From positions 1-32,579 of IMG/VR virus record IMGVR_UViG_3300048848_000286: a DNA stretch of 32,579 nucleotides; one strand, 5' to 3'. A program made the position numbers and the translations under genes. Of this stretch, positions 1,354 to 31,779 are shown piece by piece. Numbering within the stretch: position 1 is the first letter of the stretch; every line of letters begins with the position of its first letter. The notes beneath the pieces are model-generated. The model worked only from the letters and a program-made list of their open reading frames with translations. It was not told the DNA's origin and made no database searches. This DNA is from a virus. Taxonomy: Duplodnaviria; Caudoviricetes.

Positions 1354-1431
1354 CTAATCAAGTTTCGCCCCACTCTGCTCACACGCAAGCGATCTATCTG
1401 TAAGGGGGATCTCTCGAATCGATCAGTGTTG

Positions 1432-3263: not shown

Positions 3264-3283
3264 CGCCTCGTTTCGATGGCCGG

Positions 3284-3320
3284 ATAATCGGCGTCACGAG
3301 GCGATGGCGCAAAGCACAGG
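3284..3320 (-). promoter_or_regulatory. Late promoter with CCTGTGCTTTGC box (lysis module)
   Basis: Box at 3309-3320; TTGCGC-17 bp-GATTAT upstream of the endolysin. Confidence 0.65.
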
Positions 3321-3328
3321 AGAGCAGG

Positions 3329-3357
3329 TTGCACCATGCTTTCTGGGCGAGTATGGG
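3329..3357 (+). promoter_or_regulatory. Putative sigma70-like promoter of the glycosyltransferase moron
   Basis: TTGCAC-17 bp-TATGGG, back to back with the lysis promoter, upstream of GGAGAGGG and the ATG at 3383. Confidence 0.35.
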
Positions 3358-3382
3358 TGCAATCAGAAATATGGAGAGGGTC

Positions 3383-4327
3383 ATGATTGGCTACGACTGG
3401 AACGACGGCGGTATCAACAATCAAAAGCTGGCGTTACTCGGCCTCTTTTCATGCGCCGCGAATAGCGACGACAAGAGACTCTACCTACCGAAAATCTACA
3501 GCAAGGATCAGCACGACACCCTGTCAGAAGTATTTCCGCTTGAAGTAATATTCGATTTAGGCGCCGTCGTGAAGCTTGCTAGCCGCTGGGGTATCGAGAT
3601 TTGCGAAGCGCCCGTAGGGGTTACTTATGCCGACCGGATCGACCGATGCGGATGGAACTATTTTGGTGAAGGCGCAGGAGCCGTGGGAAACGCCGCGAAG
3701 GATGTCGAGGCTGGCCATTCCAGCTTGGCGGCGGATGTCCTCAGATCCCTTGTCCCACTGGCGCGCGATTTGCCATCGACAAAAAGACTTATGGGGTCCG
3801 TCTTCGGGCATTACGATATTGATACTGTTGTACAACTGAGAATTGAAGAAGATTGGGTAATTCACAGCAACAATCACATGAAACTCGTCGTTCACCAACC
3901 AGAAGATTACAATATAACCGCGCCTCAGATCATCTTAAAGCTGAAAAAAACATTCCCCGAATGCGAGCGCGCTTACGTCACTTGCGATGAGAGATATATA
4001 TTTGCGCCAAAGCAGCAGATTTCGCAGGATGTTCGCAATGAAACCGGTGTGGAAATTATATGGAAAAGCGATATTCTATCCGTGGAGGAGTTTCAGTCCT
4101 TGCCGCCCGTCACCACATCACTGGTCGATTTCGAGATCGCAAAGACGGCTGATCGTTTCGTTGGGCTGACAAGGTCCACCTTTGCAAACCTCGTAACATT
4201 TGAGAGGTTTGCCCGCTCTTTTCGAGACTGCGGGCGAGACTTCGCTTATAACGTGCCCGGCAAACGTCTAGCCAGACGGACGGATCGCGGTGGCCAGGAC
4301 AACCCTTACGCAGCGTGTGCGCTATAA
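3383..4327 (+). CDS. O-fucosyltransferase-like glycosyltransferase (GT-B fold), antisense moron; alternative start 3371
   Basis: GGINNQ, VQLRIEEDW, AYVTCD and VDFEIAKTADRFVGLTRSTFANLV match the O-FucT/NodZ-like GDP-sugar transferase pattern; AT-richer than flanks and opposite in strand. Confidence 0.8.
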   Translation: MIGYDWNDGGINNQKLALLGLFSCAANSDDKRLYLPKIYSKDQHDTLSEVFPLEVIFDLGAVVKLASRWGIEICEAPVGVTYADRIDRCGWNYFGEGAGAVGNAAKDVEAGHSSLAADVLRSLVPLARDLPSTKRLMGSVFGHYDIDTVVQLRIEEDWVIHSNNHMKLVVHQPEDYNITAPQIILKLKKTFPECERAYVTCDERYIFAPKQQISQDVRNETGVEIIWKSDILSVEEFQSLPPVTTSLVDFEIAKTADRFVGLTRSTFANLVTFERFARSFRDCGRDFAYNVPGKRLARRTDRGGQDNPYAACAL

Positions 4328-4331
4328 CCTG

Positions 4332-4517
4332 TCACTCCGTCTGCGTCGGCAACGCGACTTCACTGGACGCAGCAAGTCGAAGATCGTACTCCGCCTGCTC
4401 TTTCGAGCAAAGGCTCCCCGCGAGGTTCTCGCGCACAGTAGTAGAGATGGCGCGCATATGCTCACCCATTTTCTCCCGTGGGTTTTCTAAGCTGGCAGCA
4501 CCTTTTTTCTTGGTCAT
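4332..4517 (-). CDS. Small hypothetical protein
   Basis: 61-aa ORF coupled by an ATGA overlap to the upstream gene; no recognisable motif. Confidence 0.35.
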   Translation of the reverse strand: MTKKKGAASLENPREKMGEHMRAISTTVRENLAGSLCSKEQAEYDLRLAASSEVALPTQTE

Positions 4518-4687
4518 TTCGCCGACGCTCCTTTTTTGCGCGCCGAGACCTTGCGCTTCAACTTCGCGACCTCTTCCTCGAGTTCGGCAATGCGGGCGTC
4601 TCGATCGGCAATGACGATTTCAGCTTCGCACATGCTCATAGACATGGCCCCGAGGCGATCCTTCACAATGTCATTCATGGTCTTCAT
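4514..4687 (-). CDS. Small coiled-coil protein, possible tail-fibre assembly chaperone
   Basis: MKTMNDIVKDRLG...RIAELEEEVAKLK; AAGGA RBS overlapping the fibre gene stop. Confidence 0.6.
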   Translation of the reverse strand: MKTMNDIVKDRLGAMSMSMCEAEIVIADRDARIAELEEEVAKLKRKVSARKKGASAK

Positions 4688-4698
4688 GGTTGAGTTCC

Positions 4699-5736
4699 TT
4701 AAAGTGGGTAGCACGGGATTTTGATGTAGCTCCCGTTGATCTTGATCGTGGAATAAAAGGCAGGAGCCACCGGAAGCGCAGAAGCGGCGCCGGCGGTAGC
4801 GGAGGCGGTGGTTACAACACCCCCGAGATCGAAGGCCGTTCCGTCGAAGCCGAAGCGCGCCTGAATGGAGGAAAACAGGCTGTCTGCCCACTCGATATTA
4901 TAGCCGGGCTTTATCTTCATTACAGACTGCCCGCGCGTGTTGCTCATCGTCGTGAAGTTGAGAGCTGTATAAGCTGCGCAGTCGAAGTTAATTGCTGCCT
5001 TGAGCAGGCACTGCGACGGCGGAGCGCCGAAGGTGATGCCGTACGTGACTTCGTTGGTGCCGCCCTGGTTGGCCGGAGCGGATCCGAACGCGAGCAGAAG
5101 GCCGAAACGCTGGTTGTTCGGGTCAAGACCCTTGGCGCCCATCGTCAGCTCAAACCCGATCGTCGCAGTGTTCGGGTTCGCGACCTGATCAGAAACCCCG
5201 ATGTTGGCGCCCCACATGCCCGCATTGGCCTTTTTGGTGCCGCCGCCAAAGATCACGACATGCTCAGAATTTGGAGAGGCCTGACCATCGGCAGGGTCAT
5301 ATGTCAGCAACACCGTGAGGGGCCACTGAAACGTTGTCACGCCGGACTTCTTGATTTCGGTACTGATGAGCACTGCTGCTGACGTGAGACCCTGCACGTT
5401 GTCGCCGGTCGCATCAGGATCAATCGTGCGAGTAACCTGCAGCGTCGCATAGTCGCTGATCTTGTCCTTGTCGTGCTTGATCCAGATACGGCCGTCGTTC
5501 TTGACGCTCAGGCCTTGAAGGTCAGACCCCAGAAAGCTTTCATAGACAAGCGCGTTGCCGGGGTTACGCCCCGGTGACGCGGCCACCTGAAACACGTTTC
5601 CTCCCGCGTCCTTCGAATAGAGCTTTCGATCAACCGCATTTAGGCCAAGCTCATAATTAAGCAGTTCACTTGCTGAGAAGACCTTGCCGGCTGTGTTCGT
5701 GCGTCGCGTCTGATATCGCGATGGTTTGGTGACCAT
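4699..5736 (-). CDS. Tail fibre / receptor-binding protein with a gp34/Mtd_N-like N-terminal docking domain
   Basis: N-terminus YQTRRTNTAGKV...ELGLNAVDRKLYSKDAGGNVFQV; beta-rich body; C-terminal TASATAGAASALP...IKINGSYIKIPCY typical of fibre ends. Confidence 0.72.
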   Translation of the reverse strand: MVTKPSRYQTRRTNTAGKVFSASELLNYELGLNAVDRKLYSKDAGGNVFQVAASPGRNPGNALVYESFLGSDLQGLSVKNDGRIWIKHDKDKISDYATLQVTRTIDPDATGDNVQGLTSAAVLISTEIKKSGVTTFQWPLTVLLTYDPADGQASPNSEHVVIFGGGTKKANAGMWGANIGVSDQVANPNTATIGFELTMGAKGLDPNNQRFGLLLAFGSAPANQGGTNEVTYGITFGAPPSQCLLKAAINFDCAAYTALNFTTMSNTRGQSVMKIKPGYNIEWADSLFSSIQARFGFDGTAFDLGGVVTTASATAGAASALPVAPAFYSTIKINGSYIKIPCYPL

Positions 5737-7157: not shown

Positions 7158-7954
7158 TAGACCGATCCTCCGTCGAAGATGTCTGACGCTGTGCCGTAAA
7201 CCTGGGCAACGCGCACAAGCAGACGCGCCGTGTTTGTAGTCGACATCGCGTCAAAGGAGGTGATGGGGCTGGTAAGGACGACATGCACGCCGTCCGTTGC
7301 CGTCCAGTCAGATCCCTCCTCCATCACAGAACCGTTCAGGATCACCTCGAAAATACCGTCACTGCCGTAACCGCCGGCAATGGTCACTGTGTCTTCGCCG
7401 ATCGCGAGGCTGAAGCTCTGCGGCTTTACCGGAGCGAGAGATGCGCCGGGCTGCAAAGCCGTGTCGGCGCGGCCACCTTGAACCGAGGTCGCGAAAGCGC
7501 TTGCTTCCTAGAAAGCTGCTGACCGAATTGTCGCGACAATTGCCACAGCATCGATCAGCTCCTCAATGCTCAATTGCGAGCCGTCGAGGCTGTTCAGAAG
7601 CGCACGATCAAGGTCTCGATGCATCTCCTGCATCTGAGCTGTGAGCACATCCATCGCGAGGTTCTGGTCGCGGGTCGGAAGCGGTGCACCATCATTGAAA
7701 CGAGACTGTCGGCGGGGGAGACGATAGCCGAGGACGGACAAGGCGCCGGTGATCCCAGAGGAGAAGACGACGCGGCCATTACTGGATTTTCCTGCGGCGA
7801 AATCTGCCAGAACCCCGAAGTCATATCGGCGGACGCCATTGTGATAAACAGCAAGATCCCCGACATCGTAGAGATCGAATCCTAGCGTGAACGTCGTCGT
7901 GGGGGACGTCGGCGCAAATGTCGAAATACGATTGTCGGGCGTGGTCGTAGACAT
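7157..7954 (-). pseudogene. Tail-fibre adaptor (T7 gp17 N-terminal-like) interrupted by an in-frame TAG at 7508-7510 (nonsense allele or readthrough)
   Basis: ORFs 7508..7954 and 7157..7456 share a frame; the junction reads IRSAAF*EASAFATSVQGGRADTALQP; N-terminal part has LPRRQSRFNDGAPL...NLAMDVLTAQMQE. Confidence 0.72.
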
Positions 7955-7960
7955 GGCGCG

Positions 7961-7997
7961 AGATTGCCCGCGCCAGCATTATGCGGCAAAGCACAGG
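7961..7997 (-). promoter_or_regulatory. Late promoter with CCTGTGCTTTGC box (tail-fibre module), probably leaderless
   Basis: Box at 7986-7997; TTGCCG-17 bp-CAATCT, then 6 nt to the ATG; no Shine-Dalgarno. Confidence 0.7.
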
Positions 7998-10430
7998 TCA
8001 CTTGCCGGCGATGTTGCCGATGGCAGGCGCACGGGTCGGAAGCGGGTCACCTGGGCCCCACCAGAACGATTGCCCGAACTCCTTCTTCATCCGCCGCTCA
8101 TAACGCGAAAAGGTCTGGCGATAGTTCGGGTCGACCATGGCCTGCACGTTGTCGAACAGCAGACGATCGGTCGCGATCTTGGAGAACCAGAGCGAAGAGC
8201 CCGGCGTCCACGCCTTGACGTGCTGGGCGAGCATCTTGCCCGTCATCTCCTTGTTGCCGGACACCGCCTGCATGAAGTCGCCCGCGCCAGAGAAGATCGC
8301 GCCCGGCCCTGGTCCCATGGCATATTCTGTCAGGCCGTCGCCGCCGCGCGTCGTCGAGCTGTAGACGAGATCGCCGAGCATGCCGCCGCCGCCGCCGCGA
8401 ATGAACGCCTGCGTCCAGAACTCTTGCGTCGCCATGTCCTGCGGATCGCGCCCGGCAATGATCGACTGCATTTGCGATGCCACACCGCCGGCAAGCGTCA
8501 TCAGCGTGACGAGCTTGAGCCCGGCCGCCGTCTTGCCCCATGCGCCATCCTGGATCGCGGTACGCATGATGTGCGTCATCATGAAGGTCATCGGAAAGCT
8601 CTTGAACTGCGTCGCCGAGCGGACGATCTCACCCATGAAGGTGCCGCGCTGCAGGCCCGCTGTCATCGCGCCGCGTACCCGGGCGTCCGGCTCGAGGATC
8701 GCGAACCGTCTTTCGTCAAGGATGGCCGACATGAGCCGATCTGCAAGGGCCTGATCCTCGACACCGTTCACGTCGAAGAACTTGGCACCATCGGCCTCGA
8801 TCGGCGGCGTGATGCGCAGCTTGTCCCACTGCTCCGGCGTGAACCCGTAGCGCTTGAGGAAACCAGAGAAGGCAGGATCGAGCCTTTCGAACGCCGTCTC
8901 TGCCTGTCGCGCAATGAAGCCGTTGAACTCCATGCCCCAGGCGCGCTTGAGACCTTCAGTCCACACGTTGATGCCCGTCATGCGCATCGTGGTGTCGGCC
9001 ACACGCCCGGTCAGCCCTTGCCCGACCACCTCGTCAGAGAACCGCTTCGAGCCTATGGCGTGATCCATGACCGACGCGGCAGTAAGGTTGATCTGCCGGG
9101 CAATTGCCTCCGAGCCTTCCCTGTTCGTCGTGAGGTCCTTCACCAGCCGGCCGAGCACGGCAGTGGCCGGGATGCCGTTGACGTTGGCAGCGAGAGCGGC
9201 CGTGAAGCTGTCCCCGGGAAGCGCGGCAATGGTGGCCGACCCGAGGCGGGCGGCTGTCTGGATATTGCGCAAGCCTCCGCCGATGCCCGCGATGAGCTCG
9301 TTCTGCGCCATGCCAAGCTTGCCTGTGGCCGCATCGAACGTGCGCTGCACCGCCGCCGGGCTGTTGAGCGAGATCGACCGACCGAACCGCTTGCCGATCG
9401 TGTTGTTGCGCAGCGTGTCGTCTTTGCTGGCGACTTCGAGCAGGCGCTTGAAATTGTCCTGATAGTTCGGCCCCAGGATCTCGACGCTGGCGATCTCCCG
9501 GCCCATGCCGCCGAAGTGCCCCATCATCGTGTTGTAGAGCCCACCGTCGCCGATGCCGTATTTCTTCATCAGCCGGATATAGGAGTCCGGCGATTGAAAG
9601 CGGAACACGCGGAGCTGATTGGAGAAGCCACCGGCGCCGCCTCCGCCCGAGCCGCCGAGCGTGATGTCGTTGTACGCGTTCCCGATGATGCCGCCCACGG
9701 CCGCCCGCGGCGCGTCGCCCTGTCCCTCGGCATCCATGACACGCACGTTGCCCGCCTCGAACTCGGTCATTAGGTCATTCGTGAACTCGGCCTGCGAGAA
9801 CTTGCGCAGCCGGTTGCTGTCCCAGCTCTGCGGCAGGCGCCAGTCTTCGAGCACCGACAGCGGCTTGCCCGCGCGCTTTACCCGCTCGACGGCATAGGCT
9901 GTGGTGTCGGTCCATCCCTTTGCCGCCGCCTTTGCCGCCTGATCGCCGGTATCCTTGCCGAACAGTTCGCGCACGATATTCCAGATGGATTCGGTGTCTT
10001 GGCTCAGTCCGGCAAAACGCGACGCATACGGCTCCATCGCACCGTTCATCATGCCGAGCAGCCGCTTCGTCACGTTCTCGCTGTGGCCGTCGATGTGGAT
10101 GGCGTTGCCCATGGCTTCGCCGCCTTCGAGGTTGTCGCGCACGAGCATGCTCTGCAGGCCGACCGTCAGCCCGTTCGGGTGCTGCTGCATCCGGTTGAGC
10201 GCGGTCGAATAGGCGATGGCCTGCTTCGATGCCATGAGCTTGCGGCGTTCGGCCGTCTCCTTCATGACACGGGCAGCTTCGAGCGCGCCGGCAGCCTCGG
10301 CAGACGCCGGGCCCATGGCCGGATAGAGCCGCCCCTGAATGCCCTCATGCAGGGCAAGGGCATCATCGGCCTGCTTCTGGGAAATGCGCTTCGCCTGGAC
10401 AAGGCGCGTCAGGCAGTTGGCAATGCTCAT
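7998..10430 (-). CDS. Large internal virion (ejection) protein
   Basis: 810-aa Ala/Gly-rich helical protein with C-terminal hydrophobic segments; last of four coupled genes between tail tubular B and the fibres. Confidence 0.75.
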   Translation of the reverse strand: MSIANCLTRLVQAKRISQKQADDALALHEGIQGRLYPAMGPASAEAAGALEAARVMKETAERRKLMASKQAIAYSTALNRMQQHPNGLTVGLQSMLVRDNLEGGEAMGNAIHIDGHSENVTKRLLGMMNGAMEPYASRFAGLSQDTESIWNIVRELFGKDTGDQAAKAAAKGWTDTTAYAVERVKRAGKPLSVLEDWRLPQSWDSNRLRKFSQAEFTNDLMTEFEAGNVRVMDAEGQGDAPRAAVGGIIGNAYNDITLGGSGGGGAGGFSNQLRVFRFQSPDSYIRLMKKYGIGDGGLYNTMMGHFGGMGREIASVEILGPNYQDNFKRLLEVASKDDTLRNNTIGKRFGRSISLNSPAAVQRTFDAATGKLGMAQNELIAGIGGGLRNIQTAARLGSATIAALPGDSFTAALAANVNGIPATAVLGRLVKDLTTNREGSEAIARQINLTAASVMDHAIGSKRFSDEVVGQGLTGRVADTTMRMTGINVWTEGLKRAWGMEFNGFIARQAETAFERLDPAFSGFLKRYGFTPEQWDKLRITPPIEADGAKFFDVNGVEDQALADRLMSAILDERRFAILEPDARVRGAMTAGLQRGTFMGEIVRSATQFKSFPMTFMMTHIMRTAIQDGAWGKTAAGLKLVTLMTLAGGVASQMQSIIAGRDPQDMATQEFWTQAFIRGGGGGMLGDLVYSSTTRGGDGLTEYAMGPGPGAIFSGAGDFMQAVSGNKEMTGKMLAQHVKAWTPGSSLWFSKIATDRLLFDNVQAMVDPNYRQTFSRYERRMKKEFGQSFWWGPGDPLPTRAPAIGNIAGK

Positions 10431-12778
10431 TCTGCAGCGCTCCCGATGGTGCAGGCCTCGATCTCGCCAGCGGCGGCGATCTCCTCGTCGGCTTCGTTCA
10501 TGATTTCCTCGAGCGTGCGCTCGCCCCGGCCGTCGCCGATGTCGATCCGGATAGGTTCGGCCTTGCCGGCAACCACCTGCTCCTCATTGTCTGCCACGAG
10601 TCGCAGACCATCCATGATCGAAGCCTCGACCGTTTCGGGCGCCTCTGCAAGCTTGTCGATCGCGGAAGGCGTCAACCGCTCCTCTGCCACCTGCATGAGA
10701 TCCTGCCGGCCGACGCGATCAAGCGAGGACTTCAGGATATCGGAAGCGCCCAGAGCATCGCCGAATAGGCGCGGGCCGGAGTCGTTCTTCATGGCCTCAG
10801 ACGCATAGTCGCGCAGGAACGCCGCCATTTTCGCGCGCCCGACAGGCCGCTTCATGTCGGCGTCGCTGAACAGGGACCGGGCTACGATCTTCGCCAACTC
10901 GTCAGGGCCGCCGAACATTTCAGCTTGATGGACTAGCTCGCCGACCGGCCGCCCCTCGTCGCGGGCGCGCATGACCATCTTCACCGCGTTCAACAGATCG
11001 TCGGTGATGTCCATTCCGGCGGGGATCTCGCCCCGGGCCACTGCATCACGCATCATCGACCAGGGCGCCGAGCTGTCTGCCAGCGCGCCCGCAATGGTCT
11101 TGATGTTGTTGTCGGTGTCCTCAAGCGCGCGGCCGAGCAGGACTGGCTCACCATAGGCGCGGCCCATCAGCGCCGCCGTTATCCGCCGCTCGCCCTCCTG
11201 CGACAGGAATCCATCCTTGTCGATAAGCGAGCCCTGCTCAGCGCGGGGAAGCTTCGCCATGAATCCGCGTGCGAATGCCTGATTGCCGCTGGCCTTGACG
11301 TCGGCACCATCCAGCCGGCCGAGAAGATCGGGATCAAGCAACCGGGCATCGGCAAGCGCCTGCTCGGAAGCCCCGAGGCGCATGGCGGTGGAGCGGTTGG
11401 CCGCATTAACGAACCCGACGCGAGCCTCCGGGTCGAGGTCCGTCACGCGCCGGGCGATCAGAACGGGGTTGCGCATGGCGTCGACGTCGAAGTTCTGGGC
11501 CTTGAGAAAGCTGCGATAGTTGGATGCCGGCACATCATTCTGCTGATAGGCACGACGCAGCGCCATGACGCGCCCGTTGCCGGATTCGACAAGACCATCG
11601 GATCCGACGATCGGAGCTCCGGACTCTGCCTGGGCAGAGAAGCCAAGGCGTTCAGGCTGCAGGTTCGCCGCGATGCCTGCAATCTGGTCCTGCGAAAGCG
11701 CCCGGCTGCGGTCGCGCGGCTGAAGCTCGGGAGGGAAAGCCGGATTCACACCGAGATCGTCGAGGTGAGACGTCACCAGATCGTCGGCCTCGACCACCTC
11801 GTAGCGCACGCCGATGTCGTTGCCGTCTGCGTCATAGACACGGCCCGGGCGGGTGTTCGCCTGCGTGAAGGCTTCCGGCGGGAGCTCAACAGGCCGACCG
11901 CGGTGGATATCGTCGGCCGCCTTCATCACCGCCGCACGGTGCGCGCTGTCCCCGGCAACCGTCTTCTCGAACCGAGACGTCGGGATCGTCGCTTCGCGTG
12001 TCAGGACTGCGCCTGTATCGCGTACATGAGACGGCCACGAACCTGTCTTTGCCCGGCTCCATGCTGCTGCAAGCCCCTTGAGGCCTCCACCAAGCACCGC
12101 GCCGCCCACGCCGGCCGCGCCAACCTCATAGAGGGCATCGGACATGCCGAAAGACGGGTCGGCCTTCTGCTTGTCACCCAGCGTCAACGCCTGGATCGCG
12201 CTTTCAGATGCGAGGTTTACGCCGCCCTCGATCATCGCCGTGCGGAGAATGCCGCTTGCCAAGCCCCCCGACACAGCACCGACCACGGTTGCTGCAATGT
12301 TCACCGGGTCCGTCATGGCGGCGGCCGCCGTGCCGAGAAAGCCACCGACGCCGGAGCGCATGCTGTTCGACCGAGCCTGCAGGCTGTTGCCCTCATTCCG
12401 GGCGCCACCCATGCGCCGTAGAGCTTCAGCCTCCATGGTCTCGGGCGTCGGGAATGCCAGATCCGCCGAGGGGTTCCGGCCTTTCCACTGCTCGAACCAC
12501 TGCTGTGCCTTCTGGTCACCTTGCCGGATCAGCGTCGCGCCGCCACCGCCCACCCACTGACGGGCTTCGAGGTCGCCCTTCTCATAAAGCTGCTGGATGA
12601 ACTCGCCCTGCACATCGCTTGTGTGCCGCGACATGGCATCGGAGTTGGAGAAGTCGCGCATTGCGGAATAGTCGGATTCGAAGCGGCCGAGAAAGCCCGG
12701 ATCTGCCCCCTGAAACGGAGACTTCGCCGCGAGCTGCAGAGCGCCGGCCATGTCCTTTTCCTGAACGATCATCGGCAT
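10427..12778 (-). CDS. Internal virion protein carrying a DdrB-like ParB domain
   Basis: RYEVVEADDLVTSH...NPAFPPELQPRDRSR...GAPIVGSDGLVESGNGRVMALRRAY resembles the ddrB-ParB family; Gly-rich hydrophobic N-terminal region. Confidence 0.78.
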   Translation of the reverse strand: MPMIVQEKDMAGALQLAAKSPFQGADPGFLGRFESDYSAMRDFSNSDAMSRHTSDVQGEFIQQLYEKGDLEARQWVGGGGATLIRQGDQKAQQWFEQWKGRNPSADLAFPTPETMEAEALRRMGGARNEGNSLQARSNSMRSGVGGFLGTAAAAMTDPVNIAATVVGAVSGGLASGILRTAMIEGGVNLASESAIQALTLGDKQKADPSFGMSDALYEVGAAGVGGAVLGGGLKGLAAAWSRAKTGSWPSHVRDTGAVLTREATIPTSRFEKTVAGDSAHRAAVMKAADDIHRGRPVELPPEAFTQANTRPGRVYDADGNDIGVRYEVVEADDLVTSHLDDLGVNPAFPPELQPRDRSRALSQDQIAGIAANLQPERLGFSAQAESGAPIVGSDGLVESGNGRVMALRRAYQQNDVPASNYRSFLKAQNFDVDAMRNPVLIARRVTDLDPEARVGFVNAANRSTAMRLGASEQALADARLLDPDLLGRLDGADVKASGNQAFARGFMAKLPRAEQGSLIDKDGFLSQEGERRITAALMGRAYGEPVLLGRALEDTDNNIKTIAGALADSSAPWSMMRDAVARGEIPAGMDITDDLLNAVKMVMRARDEGRPVGELVHQAEMFGGPDELAKIVARSLFSDADMKRPVGRAKMAAFLRDYASEAMKNDSGPRLFGDALGASDILKSSLDRVGRQDLMQVAEERLTPSAIDKLAEAPETVEASIMDGLRLVADNEEQVVAGKAEPIRIDIGDGRGERTLEEIMNEADEEIAAAGEIEACTIGSAAE

Positions 12779-15627: not shown

Positions 15628-15629
15628 GG

Positions 15630-18142: not shown

Positions 18143-18723
18143 ACCCGGCGTCTCCCGCGGGCAGCAGCAATCTTCGACTTGTAGATGTTCCGGGCCGGGT
18201 TCTGCTGGTCATTCAGTGGCCGAGCCTCTTCGAGCAACCCCTCGGCTCTCTGTTCCCGGCGAGCGGCCTCGCTGAAATCCTCGTTCAGACCGCGCAGGCA
18301 TCCGGCCTCGACATAGATGGTCAGGATCTCCTCGGCGAGGGGGTGCCAACGCTCTTCCGGCGCCTCCTTGACCGACATGGCATAGACGTCTGAGTCGTAA
18401 TTGCACGACAGGACATTGCCGATGATCTCGTAGTCGGTCAGGGGCGTAGTGCCCCGATAGACCTCCTTTACATGCAGCGTGTTCGGCGCGAGGCGGAAGG
18501 CATTGCGGGAAAACCGCCGCGACTTGTTCTCAGCATCCGGGATCCGCTCAAGCAAATCGCTCGTGGTGGCGAACGGCCATGTGTGCCGCGCGGTCAGGAA
18601 GCGCACGGCGCGATCGAAAGCCCCGTTCGAGACGAGATATTCGTCGGTGCCATCGTTGAGCACGTTCAGCGTGTTGTTGCCGGTCGCGCGGAGGGCGTTA
18701 TTGAGGATCGTCAATTTGTCCAT
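18139..18723 (-). CDS. Tail tubular protein A (head-tail adaptor)
   Basis: MDKLTILNNALRATG...RHTWPFAT motif; start reassigned to the ATG at 18723. Confidence 0.82.
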   Translation of the reverse strand: MDKLTILNNALRATGNNTLNVLNDGTDEYLVSNGAFDRAVRFLTARHTWPFATTSDLLERIPDAENKSRRFSRNAFRLAPNTLHVKEVYRGTTPLTDYEIIGNVLSCNYDSDVYAMSVKEAPEERWHPLAEEILTIYVEAGCLRGLNEDFSEAARREQRAEGLLEEARPLNDQQNPARNIYKSKIAAARGRRRV

Positions 18724-18730
18724 GACGGCG

Positions 18731-18767
18731 AGCATGGCTCTTGGGCCAAAGCCGGGCAAAGCACAGG
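18731..18767 (-). promoter_or_regulatory. Late promoter with CCTGTGCTTTGC box (tail module), probably leaderless
   Basis: Box at 18756-18767; TTGCCC-17 bp-CATGCT, then 7 nt to the ATG; directly after a terminator. Confidence 0.7.
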
Positions 18768-18772
18768 ACATG

Positions 18773-18802
18773 AAAAAACCGGGGAAGCGGTGCCTCCCCG
18801 GT
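18773..18802 (-). terminator. Intrinsic terminator of the head module
   Basis: Minus strand ACCGGGGAGGCACCGCTTCCCCGGT hairpin followed by TTTTT. Confidence 0.8.
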
Positions 18803-18840
18803 CTCTGCAATCAGCCGGTCGCGATGATGAGCGACTGACC

Positions 18841-19422: not shown

Positions 19423-19454
19423 TGATCTGGTCTCCTGTGACGGTCGCCGGGCGC

Positions 19455-19886: not shown

Positions 19887-19907
19887 GGGTCCAAACTCCC
19901 GTTGTGG

Positions 19908-19930
19908 AAAGACCCGCCTCGCAGCGGGTC
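19908..19930 (-). terminator. Weak hairpin terminator or attenuator after the capsid gene
   Basis: GACCCGC-6 nt-GCGGGTC followed by TTT on the minus strand. Confidence 0.45.
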
Positions 19931-19939
19931 ATTGTTGCG

Positions 19940-20884: not shown

Positions 20885-20904
20885 TGAAAGACTCCTTCAG
20901 GCCG

Positions 20905-21837
20905 TCACTGTTTCGAGTTCTGACGGGCGTAGTTGATGCGAGCGGAGGGAGACATCTTGTTGTACTCCTCGTCCGACAGTTCTGTTTTTCCGACATCGCG
21001 ACCCGCACCGGGATTGCCCTGAACGGTACCTCTGTTGAGACGCATCAGCGCCTCGAACGCTTCGACCTGCTTGGCCGTGTACATCATCGGCGCCAGCGCC
21101 TGAGCAGCGTCGCCGCCGAGCTTGGCACCGAGCCAAGACGTCACGGCATTGACGCGCTCGACCGCCTTGGAGCCCAGAAGCTCCTTCTGCGCGGCGAGCG
21201 ATTCCTTGAGGCGGCCCTGCTCGGCCATGTCCATCTGCGCACCGAGGGCGATCATGCCCTCGAACTGCGACTGGCTCATCTGGTTGGCGTGGGCGAAAGA
21301 GCGGAGATCGGCGACGCGCGGGTCTGCATCGTCGATGATGGACTCCTGACCTTCCGGCAGCTTGACGCCATCGGGCAGTTTGAAGTCCTTCGGCAGCGCG
21401 ACCTTGTAGCCTTCCGGCTTGTCGGGCACCTGCGCGAGATTGGCGTCGTGCTCGGCCTTGAAGGCGACGAGCGAATTCAGATCATCGGCCTTGAAACCCT
21501 TTTCCGCGTCCCAGAAGGACTCGGGGATATAGTCGGGGCGCTCGGCCTTCGCGGGTTCTGCCGGCGCTTGGGGCGCGGCGGGAGATGCGGGGGCGGCAGG
21601 CTCATTGGCGGCCGGTGCAGCGGCTGCAGCGGCAGGGGCCGGAGTAGCCGGCGCGGCAGGAGCAGCACCGCCAGAAACCGGGCCGCCTTCCGGGGCGAGC
21701 GTGGCGCGCGGGCCAAACGGCGACGAGAACGCGAAAGCGCCGGGGCTACGCCCGACCAGCGGGACCGGCCCGCCTGCTTTTTCGCTGTTTCCCTGGTGCG
21801 CCATGCCGTCGCTCATCCGTTCCGTCTTCTGGTCCAT
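20905..21837 (-). CDS. Capsid scaffolding protein (start uncertain)
   Basis: Pro/Ala-rich N-terminal region, ERPDYIPESFWD, VPDKPEGYKVALP, C-terminal YNKMSPSARINYAR; precedes the capsid gene. Confidence 0.8.
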   Translation of the reverse strand: MDQKTERMSDGMAHQGNSEKAGGPVPLVGRSPGAFAFSSPFGPRATLAPEGGPVSGGAAPAAPATPAPAAAAAAPAANEPAAPASPAAPQAPAEPAKAERPDYIPESFWDAEKGFKADDLNSLVAFKAEHDANLAQVPDKPEGYKVALPKDFKLPDGVKLPEGQESIIDDADPRVADLRSFAHANQMSQSQFEGMIALGAQMDMAEQGRLKESLAAQKELLGSKAVERVNAVTSWLGAKLGGDAAQALAPMMYTAKQVEAFEALMRLNRGTVQGNPGAGRDVGKTELSDEEYNKMSPSARINYARQNSKQ

Positions 21838-22042
21838 CGCTCTTTTCCGCCTCTGTCATCGCAATCAGATCGGCCGCGAATGTGCGGCGAGCGTTGTGAG
21901 CGTGCAAAGCACAGGTCTCTAACGGGCCGATCTCCTCGACCACGGACTGCAGAAGGGCGAAAAAAGCGACGCCCTCGCGCTGGCGGGAGAACCAGTTGAG
22001 GGCGGCTTTCACTTCAGGATCGGAGAGCTTGATACGGGTCAT
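21746..22042 (-). CDS. Small conserved head-module protein (Bbp19-like position)
   Basis: MTRIKLSDPEVKAAL...ALHAHNARRTFAADLI; lies between the portal region and the scaffold. Confidence 0.6.
   Translation of the reverse strand: MTRIKLSDPEVKAALNWFSRQREGVAFFALLQSVVEEIGPLETCALHAHNARRTFAADLIAMTEAEKSDGPEDGTDERRHGAPGKQRKSRRAGPAGRA
21879..21915 (-). promoter_or_regulatory. Late promoter with CCTGTGCTTTGC box (scaffold/capsid), inside the upstream CDS
   Basis: Box at 21904-21915; TTGCAC-17 bp-CACATT. Confidence 0.65.
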
Positions 22043-22048
22043 GAGCCG

Positions 22049-22085
22049 AGGATAGCGATCGGCTGATGAGAGGGAAAAGCACACC
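22049..22085 (-). promoter_or_regulatory. Variant late promoter (GGTGTGCTTTTC), probably leaderless
   Basis: TTTCCC-17 bp-TATCCT, then 6 nt to the ATG at 22042; no Shine-Dalgarno. Confidence 0.55.
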
Positions 22086-22088
22086 TCG

Positions 22089-23405
22089 TCAGGCGGCCAT
22101 CGCCTTCAACGCAGTGAGGCCATGCCTTGCAAGACGCTCCCCGATATGACGAGAGCCGTTGACACCTGCGGCATGCAAACTGTCGGCGCCAATGACACCA
22201 ACGCTTGGCGCAGACTCGAACAGACTTCCGGGGAGCCATATAAGCCGTGGATCCCCTTGCGCTGCTGCAGCAAAGCCGTTGCGAAACGCAGCGGTGCGAG
22301 AGGCGATAGCAGCAATGGTATTGAACTGCTGGGAAGCCCCGAAGATGATGGCACGGGGCTGTGCGATCATAAGAGCTGCGATTACTGCCTGATAGGCGCT
22401 CTGAACAACAGCGTCTCCGTCAGGGCTCACGATGCCGCCGTTTGGCGTAAGGCCATCGTTGACACTCGGGAGCGCAAAGATGGCATCCAGGTGGCCGATG
22501 CGGCTTGCATCGAAATCACCAGCAGCAATACGGGCGCCGAATGTGCTGTAGTTTGAAGCGCCCGCCGTCGCGATGACCCCGGTGGACGCGACCGCGTTTA
22601 CATAGGGGTTGTTGCAACCGAATACGCCAGCCAGCCAGTCGGCCACGGCCAGTTTGAGATTGAGCGTCGTATCGTTCATGATGCCTTCGCCGAAGCTATC
22701 CCAAAGGACACCCATGCGAGGCTGATACGCCAAATCAGCGGGCCAGATGCTGTATCCGGTCGGCACGTTGATGCCGCCGAAATTGCCGCTGAGGCTGGTA
22801 TAGATTTCGATGAGCCGGCCAGAGGGAGCCGTCGACCCAAAGTCGAGCTTGTAGTAGTTGAGGTTCGGAAACGCTTGGACGCGATCGGCCGCTGAGATGC
22901 GGGCGCGAACACCGTCCGGGGTTGTCACATATGCGATCCATCGAGCGCCGATGCACCGCAAAGCGAAATCCACGACTTGCGCATCAGTGTAGAATGCGAT
23001 GCACGCACTGTGGCCCTGAAGACGAGCCCCCGCCTGGCGCGTCATGGTCTGGATGCGGTTCCCAGCCGTTGCGTTGACGTTGATGATCGGCCCGCCAAAG
23101 GGCGTAACCTTCGTCGCGTCCAATGAGCTGAACATCCCGGCGTTGTAGGCCTGCGCGGCTTGCACCGTGGAATTGGCTGCATCCGACACCGGATCTGTGA
23201 TCGTGGGCGGGGTCGCCATGACTGCGCTCAGGTCGCCGAGAGGTTTCTGCGCTGCGCTGATAAGGCGTCGGGCAATGGCCGCGCGAGACTCGAAGAGGTT
23301 GGCGACAGAGAGTTTGCCCTCTCGGCCATCAACATCATGTCCATATAGAAGCGTGAGATCACGCTGATGGCGGTACCGATGAAAGTCGTCGCGCAAATCG
23401 CCCAT
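22089..23405 (-). CDS. SGNH/GDSL hydrolase-domain protein coupled to the portal gene
   Basis: Start MGDLRDDF at a TAATG overlap with the portal stop; SGNH blocks VLWDSFGEG, NAVASTG, PSVND and DSLH. Confidence 0.75.
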   Translation of the reverse strand: MGDLRDDFHRYRHQRDLTLLYGHDVDGREGKLSVANLFESRAAIARRLISAAQKPLGDLSAVMATPPTITDPVSDAANSTVQAAQAYNAGMFSSLDATKVTPFGGPIINVNATAGNRIQTMTRQAGARLQGHSACIAFYTDAQVVDFALRCIGARWIAYVTTPDGVRARISAADRVQAFPNLNYYKLDFGSTAPSGRLIEIYTSLSGNFGGINVPTGYSIWPADLAYQPRMGVLWDSFGEGIMNDTTLNLKLAVADWLAGVFGCNNPYVNAVASTGVIATAGASNYSTFGARIAAGDFDASRIGHLDAIFALPSVNDGLTPNGGIVSPDGDAVVQSAYQAVIAALMIAQPRAIIFGASQQFNTIAAIASRTAAFRNGFAAAAQGDPRLIWLPGSLFESAPSVGVIGADSLHAAGVNGSRHIGERLARHGLTALKAMAA

Positions 23406-24997
23406 TACTGGCCTCCTGTTGGTATCATGCCGGCCTGTTGCGCGGCGCCGAGAACGGTCTGCACCAGTTTGGCGGTCTGCTTTTCGTCGCGCAGCACAAT
23501 CACCTCGTCCTTGAGGAGACGCTGCAGATTCTCGGCCGTGGCGCGTTCGTCGATCGCGGCCTGCGACGTCTCCGGGAAATAGCTCTTGAGCATGGTCAGC
23601 AGGTTGCCTGCGACCTGGACCTTCTGATTGTCCGCTGCCTGGGTAGCCGGGTTGTTCGGCACCAGAGTGAGCTTCTGACCGTTGATCTTGATGTCCGCGA
23701 TCTTGCCGTCTTTTTCGAGAAGCCACTCGAACCGGCGGTAGATCGCATACGGGCCCTCACGCCAGAACTTCTTGCCGGGCGTGCCGATCCGGCGTTGCGC
23801 TTTCACCATCTCGTCGGCCCACTGCGTGGCGGTCGGCGGCGTGTCGCCCTTCTGCTCGGGATAATCGGCGAAGTGCTTGCGGCGGATCCGGCGTTCCAGA
23901 TCCGTCGCGGTATAGAATCCGAGGTCGGCGTTACCCTCGAAGTACAGGGGCTTGATGTCCTTTCCGGAGCCCGGGCGCATGGCATACGCCTTGCCGCTCT
24001 CAAGCCCGTTCTCGAAGTCCATCACGCCGTCGTCGGGATAGCCCATCGGCGGGTTGATCGCGATGTCGACGCGATCCTGCGTGGCGGCTGTAATGACGTC
24101 CAGCACGCGGTAGTCCTGCAGCGCCTTGATCGAGGGACCGAAGCCCCAGGCATATTCGTTGTCGGGTGAGAACCGGGCAATGATCAGCGGCAGGCAGCCC
24201 TCACCACTGATGCTGTCCTCCTTCACCGCCATGCGGTCGACGAGGAGAACGTGCTTCCACACCTCATCTTCGGGCTTCGACCAATCCCGCCAGTAGCCCC
24301 ACACCACCTCGATCGTGCAAGACTTCTCGTCGCGGATCTTCTTGGCAATCTTTTCCGGGAGCGTGATATCGCCGATGACGGATTTCAGCTTGGTGCCGCG
24401 AACATGCCGGACGCGGAACCGGTCGCCCACCGAACCATCGGCTTCGACATTGAACTCGAGCTCGCGCGGCGGTACCGAGCTGCAGGAGATCGGCCGCGTG
24501 TTGTACGGCTTCTCGATCCACCACGCGACGGTGCCAACGGCGGCATGCGGGTCGAGCGTTGAGCCGAGCTCGGACTCGAAATTCGAGGCGCGGATCGCGG
24601 AAAAGATGATCTTGTCGCGCGCCTTGCTCTCGTCCTGCAGGTCCTTAAGCTGGGGCGGCTCTATGTCGCCGAGCTCGGACTCGTCGAGCCCGTTTGCTAC
24701 CCAGTCCGTCCCCTGCGGGAAAAACGCGGAAACCACCTCTGTCGCAAAATCCTCTGACACTTCAGAGCCAATGCCGGTCGCAAGATCTTCCTGCTCCGCA
24801 TCCCGCCTCCTGCTCGCTTTCACGGTGGATTCGATGTTCCAGGACAGGCGCGGCCGCGTGAAGAAGTAGGCCTCCTGCAGATCGGCGCGAGCCTCAGTCT
24901 TCTGAGCGCGGGCGTCCTTCAGACGCTGGTTCGCGTCCTCTGCGACCTTCGGGTCTGGGAAGCTTGACGCTTCCTTGTTGGGAGGCAAGGTTGCCAC
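23405..24997 (-). CDS. Portal protein (podoviral head-to-tail connector)
   Basis: 530 aa; PLIIARFSPDNEYAWGFGPSIKAL and DTPPTATQW motifs; lies after terL. Confidence 0.9.
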   Translation of the reverse strand: MATLPPNKEASSFPDPKVAEDANQRLKDARAQKTEARADLQEAYFFTRPRLSWNIESTVKASRRRDAEQEDLATGIGSEVSEDFATEVVSAFFPQGTDWVANGLDESELGDIEPPQLKDLQDESKARDKIIFSAIRASNFESELGSTLDPHAAVGTVAWWIEKPYNTRPISCSSVPPRELEFNVEADGSVGDRFRVRHVRGTKLKSVIGDITLPEKIAKKIRDEKSCTIEVVWGYWRDWSKPEDEVWKHVLLVDRMAVKEDSISGEGCLPLIIARFSPDNEYAWGFGPSIKALQDYRVLDVITAATQDRVDIAINPPMGYPDDGVMDFENGLESGKAYAMRPGSGKDIKPLYFEGNADLGFYTATDLERRIRRKHFADYPEQKGDTPPTATQWADEMVKAQRRIGTPGKKFWREGPYAIYRRFEWLLEKDGKIADIKINGQKLTLVPNNPATQAADNQKVQVAGNLLTMLKSYFPETSQAAIDERATAENLQRLLKDEVIVLRDEKQTAKLVQTVLGAAQQAGMIPTGGQ

Positions 24998-25006
24998 GAG
25001 TGACCC

Positions 25007-25189
25007 TTACTTGCCGACGAGCGGCGAGACGCGGGCGGTCCCGGCGAGCGCGCTGCGGGCGCCAAACATGCGCAGCGACTGGTCCGTATCAGTCGTCAGC
25101 CGCTCGCGCATCGTGTTGATTTTCTCCTGAGCCGCCGCTGCCTTCTGGCGGGCGAGCTCCGGATCTTCCTTTGGCTGCTGCTGCTTCAT
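25007..25189 (-). CDS. Small phage protein upstream of the portal
   Basis: MKQQQPKEDPELARQ...; 60 aa in a typical pre-portal position. Confidence 0.6.
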   Translation of the reverse strand: MKQQQPKEDPELARQKAAAAQEKINTMRERLTTDTDQSLRMFGARSALAGTARVSPLVGK

Positions 25190-25631
25190 GACCGCCGCTT
25201 TCGTCGATAATTTCGCCACCGTTAGCGAGACATTGACGAAAAAGGGCGTCCGGCCGCAAAGCACAGGACTTCAGGCCGAGGATGTGCGCGGCCGCCGGCA
25301 CGCACCACAGGCCCACCGACATATTGAGGTTCAGCTCCTGCCCGATCGGTCTCGCCATGCGCACAATCGTGTTTCCGGCTGCGAAGTGGCCGAGAGCGGC
25401 GTCAGCCTCGTGGTTTCCGATGAGGTAGATCCGGGATCGGTCCATCTGGAAGTCGAAAAACGCCCAGGTCTGGGCTCGCGGCACGAATCCCATGACCGAA
25501 ACGTGCTTGAACCGGCCACAGGCCAGCCAGCGCACCCACCATGTCGGCGAATCCGGGTGGAATGCGACGAACCAGTCGGTCGGCTCGCAATCAGCCAGCT
25601 TCAAGCCGTCTCCAAATCCGTCAAAACCCAC
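25089..25631 (-). CDS. Hypothetical protein, possibly a permuted papain-like (His before Cys) fold; start uncertain
   Basis: WFVAFH...GRFKHVSVMG...GLWCVPAAAHILG; GTG at 25631 overlaps the end of terL. Confidence 0.6.
   Translation of the reverse strand: MGFDGFGDGLKLADCEPTDWFVAFHPDSPTWWVRWLACGRFKHVSVMGFVPRAQTWAFFDFQMDRSRIYLIGNHEADAALGHFAAGNTIVRMARPIGQELNLNMSVGLWCVPAAAHILGLKSCALRPDALFRQCLANGGEIIDESGGHEAAAAKGRSGARPPEGSGGSGENQHDARAADD
25230..25267 (-). promoter_or_regulatory. Late promoter with CCTGTGCTTTGC box (portal module), inside the upstream CDS
   Basis: Box at 25256-25267; TTGCGG-18 bp-CAATGT. Confidence 0.6.
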
Positions 25632-27216: not shown

Positions 27217-27463
27217 TGGGGTCGCCGTCCATGATCAAATGCAGACGATGAAGCAGCCTTGACACACCCGAAAGCCGACGATGCGCATCATCCGTGTGCG
27301 TGAACCCCGTGATCACGGCTCCGTCGACCATGGCGGCCGAGAACGTCAAATCCACGATTTCCCCGGCCTCAGCTTGCGCAAGCAATTCCCGCAGGCGATC
27401 AACCACCTCAGTTTTCCGCCCTTGCGCCGGGTCGAACTGGACAACCTTCAAGTCAGCCATCAA
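27209..27463 (-). CDS. Hypothetical phage protein
   Basis: 84 aa overlapping both neighbours; VVDRLRELLAQAEAGEI pattern. Confidence 0.65.
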   Translation of the reverse strand: MMADLKVVQFDPAQGRKTEVVDRLRELLAQAEAGEIVDLTFSAAMVDGAVITGFTHTDDAHRRLSGVSRLLHRLHLIMDGDPNA

Positions 27464-27714
27464 GCCACCTCGTAAGTCGCCGCGAAGATATCCCCCTTCA
27501 CAGGGTAGATCTCGCCCTCGGCACCCCGAACAATCCAGTCGCCGGGCTCAGCCGTCAGTATCCCGTTCAGCGTCGAGATCGCCACGACACCCGCCGACAG
27601 CTTGATCACCCCATATTCCGCCGCCTCGACTGCCCAGGCAGGTTCGACCGGCAGCAATGGGCCGTTCCACTGGATTGCCTCAACGACAACGGGGAGCTTT
27701 CGGAACATGGTCAT
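27460..27714 (-). CDS. PGDYG-like small phage protein
   Basis: FRKLPVVVEAIQW...TLNG..AEPGDWIVRGAEGEIYPVKGDIFAATYE; GGAG RBS before the ATG at 27714. Confidence 0.78.
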   Translation of the reverse strand: MTMFRKLPVVVEAIQWNGPLLPVEPAWAVEAAEYGVIKLSAGVVAISTLNGILTAEPGDWIVRGAEGEIYPVKGDIFAATYEVA

Positions 27715-27743
27715 GGCGTTTCTCCAGAGCGATCGTCTCAACA

Positions 27744-27771
27744 GAGGCGGCGAGCCGGAACCCGCCGCCTC
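27744..27771 (-). other. GC-rich hairpin between the Acb2/Tad1-like and PGDYG-like genes
   Basis: GAGGCGGCG...CGCCGCCTC inverted repeat with no clear U tract. Confidence 0.5.
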
Positions 27772-27778
27772 ATCAGCA

Positions 27779-28018
27779 TCAAGCCGTGACGTGCTTCACA
27801 GCCCACATGACCGACTGCTCGGCATTCGTCAGAGCCAACGACAGTTCGCGGCTCTTGCCTGTCTCATTGATGATGTCGATCAGCGCCTGACCGGCATCCT
27901 TGATCTTCACCATCTGCGCCTTCTCGGCATCCGACAGCACCCGGTACTGATGACGGACCGTGTTGTTCGCCGTCCGCTGATCGCCCGCGCTGTCGACCAT
28001 GTTCTTCTGCTCGCTCAT
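27779..28018 (-). CDS. Acb2/Tad1-like helical hairpin protein (candidate cyclic-nucleotide sponge)
   Basis: QYRVLSDAEKAQMVKIKDAG resembles the Acb2 N-terminal helix; SRELSLALTNAEQSVMWAVK resembles the Tad1/Acb2 C-terminal helix; GGAG RBS. Confidence 0.72.
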   Translation of the reverse strand: MSEQKNMVDSAGDQRTANNTVRHQYRVLSDAEKAQMVKIKDAGQALIDIINETGKSRELSLALTNAEQSVMWAVKHVTA

Positions 28019-28183
28019 TGCCGTTCTCCGTTTCTGTGGTGGTGAAAAAAATCCAGACCGTGATCTCCTCAGTGGTTCGAATATTGTGGGAGGGTGGAAC
28101 TGGAAGACTCGAGCCCAATTTTGCCCCCACCCCCCTTTGGCAGGCGCCCGAACGAGAACGAAGGGGGTACGGGGGCGCGTTCC

Positions 28184-28720
28184 TCAATCATCCTCGGGAA
28201 CGTCCTGCATATGCGGTAACGGGTTGCCCTCGCCTTTCCCCAGATGCTCTATCTGTGCGCCGCCTGATCGATCCAGCTTGACCATGTATCCAGGCGTCAC
28301 GTTGGTGGTGTTGTTCACCTGCACATTGATCTGCGTGGCGCCGATCGTGTGCTGCCCTCGGTTCTGCCCGTCCAGGTATTCAGCGGCCTTGAAGCGCACT
28401 GTCCCTGTCTCCTTCTCGTCGAGCAGTTCACCCATGGTGTGGAGCGCACGAGGGCGGAGGCTATTCCGCAACACCTCCTGAAGCTCGTTCAGATAAGCAA
28501 GCACCTCTGTTTTGCGCAGAGCGAGGCGAAGGGTATCGTCGTGAATTCCGGCCTCTTTTGCAGCGTCGGTGCGCTTCCGCCCTTCGAAGACCATGAGCTC
28601 GATAGCTGCCTTGGTCTTGGGGGAGATCGAGAGCTCTTTTTTTTGCTTGCTGAGGAGAGCGGCGGCTTTCTGAGCTTTGGCGCTGTGAGCCGATACCGTC
28701 TGCTTGGAAGGCATGACCAT
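28184..28720 (-). CDS. terS: Terminase small subunit (putative)
   Basis: HTH-like RKRTDAAKEAGIHDDTLRLAL, then RFKAAEYLD and INVQVN; first gene of the late region, upstream of terL. Confidence 0.7.
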   Translation of the reverse strand: MVMPSKQTVSAHSAKAQKAAALLSKQKKELSISPKTKAAIELMVFEGRKRTDAAKEAGIHDDTLRLALRKTEVLAYLNELQEVLRNSLRPRALHTMGELLDEKETGTVRFKAAEYLDGQNRGQHTIGATQINVQVNNTTNVTPGYMVKLDRSGGAQIEHLGKGEGNPLPHMQDVPEDD

Positions 28721-28820
28721 GCTGCTGTCTCTGCGCCTCTGCTGATCTCTCGGAATGCGCTGACCTGTTTAGAAAGAAGGATGCGCGCGCGAAGCTTGTA
28801 ACCGGAGGGCGGAAATGGAC

Positions 28821-28832
28821 GCAAAGCACAGG
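28821..28832 (-). promoter_or_regulatory. CCTGTGCTTTGC box upstream of terS
   Basis: Exact 12-mer 100 bp upstream of terS; the -10 element is less clear. Confidence 0.6.
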
Positions 28833-28901
28833 ATGCGGATGCAATGATTACAGTGAGTTGCGAGGATGGCCGGAGAGGGCGCGAATTAGCCGTGTCGGAT
28901 G

Positions 28902-29031
28902 AACGTGCATATATTGCACTTTTGCCTTTCCAGCCGGATGGGGGGATTCGGTGTGCTTTGGCGGATGCTGGGCACCGGCTGTAACGTGCAACATATGCAG
29001 GTTCAGTGGCGCTCAGTATGCGACTGTTGCA
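28902..29031. promoter_or_regulatory. Operator-like TGCA-N5-TGCA palindromes and a plus-strand variant box (GGTGTGCTTTGG, 28950-28961)
   Basis: AACGTGCATATATTGCA (28902-28918), AACGTGCAACATATGCA (28983-28999), TGCGACTGTTGCA (29019-29031). Confidence 0.5.
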
Positions 29032-31744: not shown

Positions 31745-31779
31745 GGTGCAATCCGTAGCTAAGTGTTGCAGGCAGTAGC

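Follow-up and report, generated by a model that had tools for sequence, protein, structure and literature searches.

The 32,579-bp virus record IMGVR_UViG_3300048848_000286 (Caudoviricetes), which was analyzed over its whole length and is called the window here, contains a repeated 12-nucleotide (nt) box, CCTGTGCTTTGC, that very probably marks a class of host sigma70-type late promoters. In the full explanation that we favor, at a probability of about 0.62, these late promoters would be turned on by a phage-encoded helix-turn-helix (HTH) protein, for which the gene at 31256-31786 is the candidate, and a set of satellite-like elements would respond to the same switch.

The Box and Its Copies

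Six exact copies of CCTGTGCTTTGC lie at positions 3309, 7986, 18756, 21904, 25256, and 28821, every one on the minus strand, which is the late strand. In a de novo ranking, CCTGTGCTTTGC is the top 12-mer of the window, seen 6 times vs. 0.003 expected under a third-order Markov model (log10 P about -17.8, uncorrected for the number of words tested). If up to two mismatches are permitted, the window has nine matches vs. a shuffle mean of 2.81, and none of 100 shuffles reaches nine. The initial annotation, made from the letters of the window, had placed the exact word at these same six positions and had described two variants, which were found as TGTGCTTTTC at 22074 (-) and, two positions from the 28950 given there, as TGTGCTTTGG at 28952 (+); two copies (21904 and 25256) indeed lie inside genes, as it had said. 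A general repeat search of the window did not pick up the box, and a generic consensus promoter scan scored none of its sites. Repeat, spacing, and conservation confirm that the box is real.

According to family scans, the minus strand encodes a podovirus late region with TerS, TerL, portal, major head protein, tail tube A and B, ejection proteins, fibre, and a GH108 endolysin. Boxes stand before terS, the portal block, the scaffold/capsid genes, tail tube A, the fibre block, and the lysin.

Anatomy of the Predicted Promoters

In five of the six copies a hexamer of the form xAxxxT begins 19-20 nt past the box, and the TTGC of the box then forms a -35 element with a spacer of 17-18 nt. On the minus strand, the likely terS/terL promoter (28795..28832) consists of the box at 28821-28832 and TACAAG at 20 nt (T at -12 and A at -11, no T at -7), with the ATG at 28720, whereas the likely portal-block promoter (25230..25267) combines the box at 25256-25267 with CAATGT at 20 nt, the next ATG being at 25189. 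The likely scaffold/capsid promoter (21879..21915; box 21904-21915, CACATT at 19 nt) precedes an ATG at 21837, and the likely lysis promoter (3284..3320; box 3309-3320, GATTAT at 19 nt) an ATG at 3263, that of the GH108 endolysin. In three cases the start codon follows so closely that a leaderless start is likely: the tail promoter (18731..18767; box 18756-18767, CATGCT at 19 nt) with the ATG of tail tube A at 18723, 7 nt on; the fibre-block promoter (7961..7997; box 7986-7997, CAATCT at 19 nt) with an ATG at 7954, 6 nt on; and, behind an inserted gene, the variant TGTGCTTTTC (22049..22083) with TATCCT at 19 nt and an ATG at 22042, also 6 nt on. The -10-like hexamers listed in the initial annotation are present as claimed, with TATCCT belonging to the variant at 22074, but the terS copy at 28821 has no xAxxxT. 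Nor does the terS promoter of most relatives have one.

Relatives of the window phage provided 242 distinct box-like sites; these are all the matches to a regular expression, chance ones included, and they are related by descent, with about seven module positions as independent units. Among them, 128 have an xAxxxT that begins at 19 nt and 48 have one at 20 nt (176 in total), the background being 3.9% per position. The 64 sites lacking it at 18-20 nt are mostly terS promoters and chance matches. Of the 178 sites that do have a -10, 66% show C at position -12 and 6% show T, and 53, likely leaderless as well, are followed by an ATG 6-7 nt past the -10. Positions -43 to -36 are conserved among relatives and the flanks are not. 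Several terS copies (L004, L012, and L019) contain CTTTGACA, in which TTGACA is a perfect -35. As in activator-dependent sigma70 promoters, a TTG-type -35 lies 17-18 nt from the -10 and a conserved non-core site adjoins the -35.

Most alphaproteobacterial sigma70 promoters lack T at -7 (excerpt of PMC8407463). The box promoters mostly keep T-7 and lose T-12, which suggests that they are weak and in need of assistance. A hairpin with a T-run, resembling an intrinsic terminator, lies just upstream of the tail box (18772..18799, -), and such a hairpin directly precedes the tail box in 25 of the 27 relatives having a box there; two more loci, with no box within the stretch examined, were left out of this count.

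Boxes Inside Genes and in Host Genomes

The box at 25256-25267 sits inside the gene after terL and the one at 21904-21915 inside the pre-scaffold gene, and both encode C-A-L. The pre-portal box is kept in 37 of 37 loci, with Leu encoded by TTG in 37/37 and Cys by TGT in 30/30, and the Cys under its -10 is TGT in 31/32, vs. 7/35 at a control Cys. The pre-scaffold box is kept in 36/36 loci, again with TTG in all 36; the match pattern itself demands TTG, but no locus fell out. As TTG makes up 6% of the Leu codons in the late genes of the window, the in-gene boxes fix rare codons in the relatives.

In bacterial genomes, the exact word lies within the prophage in six of seven cases in G001, in 12 of 12 in G002 (two tandem copies), and in two of three in G004, and the host genome G003 has no exact word, its prophage using CCAGTGCTTTGC. 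The pattern of box plus -10 has a match in 55 of 401 Rhizobiaceae genomes, nearly always a single one and in a number comparable to a control pattern, whereas at least two distinct sites on one contig were found only in G001, G002, G004, and G208. An equal frequency in host DNA, which according to the initial annotation would speak against the regulon, was not seen; the word is nearly confined to prophages and at chance level elsewhere. In G002 (contig C37; L002 and L003) the prophage occurs twice in tandem, 46,233 bp apart and with identical box contexts, which is either a tandem lysogen or an assembly duplication.

Range Among Relatives

The closest relative, G006, is a provirus of Rhizobium sp. 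PP-CC-3A-592 (portal 93% and TerL 97% identical) and carries genes for integrase, cI, cro, RusA, a GcrA-like protein, and DUF1376. The window record ends inside the replication operon; because of the gene content of G006, the window phage is likely a temperate podovirus of Rhizobiaceae. The word with at most one mismatch is contained in 20 of 22 records, and in the remaining two the same module starts carry GTGCGTTGC instead. Seven late-strand copies are present in the complete genome of Mwe-JY08 (PP395640); in 50,697 phage records, no other closely related isolate with the box was found. Although described as "Microcystis phage Mwe-JY08," this phage (L081) has 66% GC, a GapR-like gene, and the gene order and box of Rhizobiaceae prophages; the culture probably contained an alphaproteobacterium that is its true host.

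The core GTGC[T/G]TTG persists down to about 40% TerL identity, low-GC phages included. The TerL-distant set, which was not deduplicated, comprises the 62 of 160 fetched loci that have at least 9 kb and less than 60% identity. Its 37 low-GC loci contain GTGC[GT]TTG[ACT] 70 times on the late strand vs. 17 times on the other strand, and its 25 high-GC loci 61 vs. nine times. These sites fall at the same module places, with variants such as GTGCGGTGC in L285 and ATGCGTTGC in L276. Low-GC phages (L191, L202, L217, L179, L172, and others) keep TGTGCGTTG at module starts, often without xAxxxT at 19-20 nt, so that their -10 rule differs. The TerL of L191 is 66% identical to that of pelagiphage Hodr, which has degenerate box sites only. 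A clear box was not seen in L169, L178, L188, L195, L210, L235, L256, L289, and L308, and the phages BPP-1, BcepC6B, HTVC010P, MEP301, and SI2 have neither a repeated box nor an HTH match.

A Candidate Activator

The candidate late activator (31256..31786, -) is the last gene of the replication operon and combines an N-terminal AlpA/excisionase-like winged helix with a C-terminal HTH of the HipB/XRE type. Its homologues form the most widespread non-virion gene across 23 clustered records (21/23); by BLAST, the HTH is found in 21 of the 23 phage records and weakly in the 22nd, and the 23rd begins too late to hold the gene. The C-terminal HTH is the constant part, the AlpA-like N-terminus being missing in G016, G017, G025, and Mwe-JY08. 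A model of the C-terminal domain has HipB chains (TM 0.83-0.86) and controller (C) proteins as closest folds, at E values of only 0.03-0.06. At 50% identity, 182 clusters match the candidate; among ten looked up, two were named, both "hypothetical protein." The full AlpA-HTH gene was found in seven of 400 genomes, four with helpers (G001, G002, G004, and G208) and three with satellites, in a search that scored nine candidates per genome and may have missed HTH-only forms. All four Rhizobiaceae genomes with at least two sites of box plus -10 possess the full gene. A broad HTH alignment search of 401 Alphaproteobacteria genomes found G001 alone.

Other phage genes were considered as reader of the box. 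Mwe-JY08, with seven boxes in a complete genome and the HTH, has neither GcrA nor the divergent XRE gene, and both are also absent from all satellites; the GcrA homologue, recognized by Pfam and at first an attractive candidate, is by its distribution dispensable for the box regulon. A phage GcrA homologue stands beside a methylase-like gene in most close relatives, for example at 857-1426 (+) of L007. Family 19, the gene after cro, is missing in G025 and G017, whose records include that region. The divergent XRE-type gene (29059..29358, +) is likely itself a member of the regulon: a variant box, TGTGCTTTGG with TAACGT at 20 nt (28952..28987, +), faces it, and box variants point at the same gene in L088, L090-L093, L095, and L114. 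Sigma region 4 (PF04545) was found in none of five records (four near-complete relatives and one satellite), with a positive control in 14 of 14. The search for a single-subunit RNA polymerase (PF00940) was likewise negative in five records, but its control gave no signal; family scans found none. The HTH protein at 31256-31786 is moderately favored as the putative reader of the box.

Satellite-Like Elements

The HTH-based search led to 36 loci, four of which lack TerL and portal; with two more from genomes there are six distinct satellite-like elements, L120 (G029), L121 (G028), L122 (G027), L097/L151-L152 (G026/G154), L154 (G402), and L155-L156 (G324). All six carry an integrase together with TerS and ejection and/or fibre genes of the podovirus family, and AlpA is present in five, the record of G027 stopping at the integrase. 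No TerL, portal, capsid, tail tube, GcrA, or divergent XRE was found in any of the six. G029 is a 16,271-bp unit with a 127-bp terminal repeat and represents, in one record, a complete element outside the chromosome. To have ejection proteins of their own seems out of the ordinary for satellites.

Each of the six elements has a box some 700-800 nt upstream of its HTH gene. The intervening gene encodes a helical protein of 221-238 amino acids in the five elements examined for it (all but G324), and a small excisionase-like gene follows the HTH in the operon; the whole succession of box, helical protein, HTH, and small gene was recorded for four satellites. The helical protein has no Pfam or PHROG match and no PDB sequence match, and Sid was not listed in its fold searches; the model is all-helical, with generic hairpin matches alone. 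A second box stands before a fibre-block gene in four of the six. In a tree of 82 columns, the satellite HTHs need at least three separate origins, with few columns and many open forks. Five of them nest in a clade whose phages use T at -36, as their own boxes do, and the HTH of G324 lies outside, its box having G. The satellites appear to be wired into the same switch as their helpers.

Proposed Mechanism and Its Alternatives

In the mechanism that we propose, the repeat would be the upstream half of a host sigma70 late-promoter class, in which a phage activator is predicted to bind CC-T-GTGC-K at about -43 to -36, TTG(C/A) probably serves as the -35, and a weak -10 (mostly C-12, A-11, and T-7) would follow 19-20 nt downstream. 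Each late module would have its own promoter, and six to eight weak promoters would be turned on in parallel by recruited host RNA polymerase, the late genes not being expressed from one antiterminated transcript. After induction, the replication operon, as an early-lytic transcript, would yield the HTH protein, which would bind GTGC-K beside the -35 and, by analogy with controller proteins of restriction-modification systems, might touch sigma region 4. Satellite islands with the same HTH behind their own box would be switched on by the induced helper, and their HTH copy might amplify or retune the late program of the helper, as P4 delta does with P2.

The initial annotation had suggested a regulon of host-RNA-polymerase promoters with a phage factor, and the bipartite box/-10 structure, fixed spacing, leaderless ATGs, restart behind a terminator, confinement to prophages, codon freezing, and lack of a sigma-4 domain agree well with it. 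Of the two kinds of factor that it had named, an activator fits, whereas nothing points to sigma appropriation in particular. It had put forward no particular gene, so that the candidate and the satellite family are additions of the present analysis. Unlike in T7-type promoters, conservation is bipartite with a free spacer of 19-20 nt and without a contiguous block through the start.

Several observations weigh against an HTH activator at weak late promoters. The terS promoter and four of the six promoters of satellite HTH operons lack T-7. The T/G covariation at -36 is largely one clade split, and hence weak. The box is not a palindrome, and HTHs of the HipB/C-protein type usually bind dyad sites as dimers. 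The core GTGCGTTG persists in G022, where the putative recognition helix differs strongly (GLSDRRITQLLS), and low-GC phages, which frequently lack xAxxxT at 19-20 nt, keep it with just weak XRE matches (E values of 1e-4 to 1e-7), so that the box outlasts the recognition helix in both. L169 and L256 have an HTH homologue and no box with a -10 in 15-21 kb. Finally, TerS (28184..28720, -) is co-distributed with the box as widely as the HTH, with a homologue in every tabulated box-bearing helper and satellite record. The distribution of TerS and a box that outlasts the recognition helix would suit the same late promoters having another phage reader, either TerS acting in positive feedback or a small unrecognized gene, and the HTH being merely a co-travelling regulator. 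We nevertheless regard this as unlikely, as terS itself lies behind a box promoter, the box in satellites precedes the HTH operon and not terS, and the other readers considered are missing where the box is present (GcrA and the divergent XRE in Mwe-JY08, family 19 in G025 and G017).

Less probable still is that the HTH protein is a repressor or timer that holds the late promoters silent in a lysogen or during the first part of induction, with satellites interfering with the helper by their own copy. The box overlaps the -35, and HipB and C proteins, the closest folds, are able to repress (excerpt of PMC2504287), but the promoters are already weak (C-12 in 66%, none passing the consensus scan) and the gene ends the replication operon, the usual place of late activators, cI and cro being separate. 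That a conserved host factor reads the box, i.e., sigma70 aided by an activator of the host, or else an alternative sigma, and no phage-coded reader, might be expected from a core that is unchanged across phages of 32% to 68% GC and from TTG at -35 as a host element; it is rather improbable given that host DNA apart from prophages contains the word at no more than chance level. The sigma54 promoter consensus asks for GG at -24 and for GC at -12, ten bases further on, whereas the box is preceded by ct, ga, gt, ga, gt, and at. A site for packaging, recombination, or an RNA-level function, or a coding artefact of a C-A-L peptide, is hardly credible: two copies do encode C-A-L in frame, but four lie outside such a frame and the flanks have diverged, and the fixed distance of 19-20 nt to xAxxxT, leaderless ATGs, synonymous freezing, and the place right after a terminator speak against it. 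Late promoters read by the HTH protein remain our preferred explanation.

Comparison With Known Systems

In P4 the operon order is sid-delta-psu. The layout of the satellites, with box, helical scaffold-like protein, activator copy, and small gene, plus their own TerS, ejection proteins, and fibre, would have reached that of P4 independently. The P2 Ogr/P4 delta pair is alike in that several host-RNA-polymerase late promoters share an activator site and the satellite carries its own activator copy, and here six of six satellite-like elements have a homologue of the helper regulator behind a promoter of the same class. In contrast, the helper here is a podovirus, the regulator is an HTH protein and not a zinc finger (no Ogr/Delta Pfam match), and the site is asymmetric and overlaps the -35, whereas the Ogr site is a dyad further upstream. 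P4 delta transactivates P2 late genes and P4 Sid shrinks heads (excerpt of PMC12239096); the satellite helical protein shows no specific match to Sid. Integrase and AlpA without TerL, portal, capsid, or tail tube are also what phage satellites of the P4 type or the type of phage-inducible chromosomal islands have.

The initial annotation had also been reminded of the T4 MotA box. The MotA/AsiA middle promoters do share a TGCTT core and the combination of a phage box with a host -10, but the MotA box lies 12 ± 1 bp from the -10, replaces the -35, and needs an excellent -10 (excerpt of PMC2988021). The likeness is superficial, the box here being 20-21 bp from the -10, with TTG kept at -35, mostly C at -12, and G tolerated inside the core. 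No Pfam or PHROG match to MotA or AsiA was obtained in 41 open reading frames of the window or in 56 early genes of G006 and Mwe-JY08.

Late activation by Mu C and P1 Lpa offers additional analogues. The Ltr late activators (RinA, ArpU, LtrB, and LtrC) turn on terS and bind direct repeats at its promoter (excerpt of PMC3753634); they are similar in that a single small activator gene closes the early/replication region, and differ from the six to seven separate single-box promoters found here and in protein family. C proteins of restriction-modification systems activate through sigma70 contact at -35 (excerpt of PMC2504287) and, with HipB, provide the best folds for the candidate's C-terminal domain, but both are autoregulators on dyad operators and not phage late activators. 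GafY of the Caulobacter gene transfer agent is likewise an alphaproteobacterial factor, which activates many sigma70 promoters of virion genes via sigma domain 3-4; its binding site lies far upstream from the -35, and no box-like consensus is given in the excerpt of PMC11150451.

The logic of a phage activator on host sigma70 promoters is known, whereas site, protein family, and satellites all seem to be new. In the freely accessible literature that was covered, no description of the box, the activator family, or the satellite family was found, nor of the late control of this widespread podovirus group. The box supplies exact promoters that can be tested and a candidate activator known by its gene, and the prophages of Rhizobium sp. 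PP-CC-3A-592, Ferranicluibacter rubi, and Gellertiella together with the isolate Mwe-JY08 form a test set in culture. Only tentatively, and at less than even odds, we extend the explanation to one ancient promoter code (GTGC[T/G]TTG and a weak -10) that would reach from Rhizobium prophages to Hodr-related low-GC phages, be read by an undescribed HTH family, and have been captured at least three times by satellites of 12-20 kb with P4 layout. If true, this extended reading would provide short-tailed phages with a transactivating helper/satellite pair like P2/P4 and rhizobia with a compact inducible activator-promoter part.

Neighboring Genes

In the terS-terL interval, the gene at 27779-28018 (-) encodes an Acb2/Tad1 hairpin-domain protein (PF24729, E value of 3e-18), likely an anti-defence sponge made from the late promoter. 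A large inserted open reading frame without Pfam or PHROG match (22089-23408, -) lies between portal and pre-scaffold gene, and the variant box at 22074, at its end, may restart transcription behind it. On the opposite strand, two lower-GC glycosyltransferase-like genes (1-1353 and 3236-4327, both +; GT61 and O-FucT-like), the latter overlapping the lysis promoter, are likely morons for surface modification. The ejection-protein block includes a gene (10427-12778, -) with an internal ddrB-like ParB domain (PF18763).

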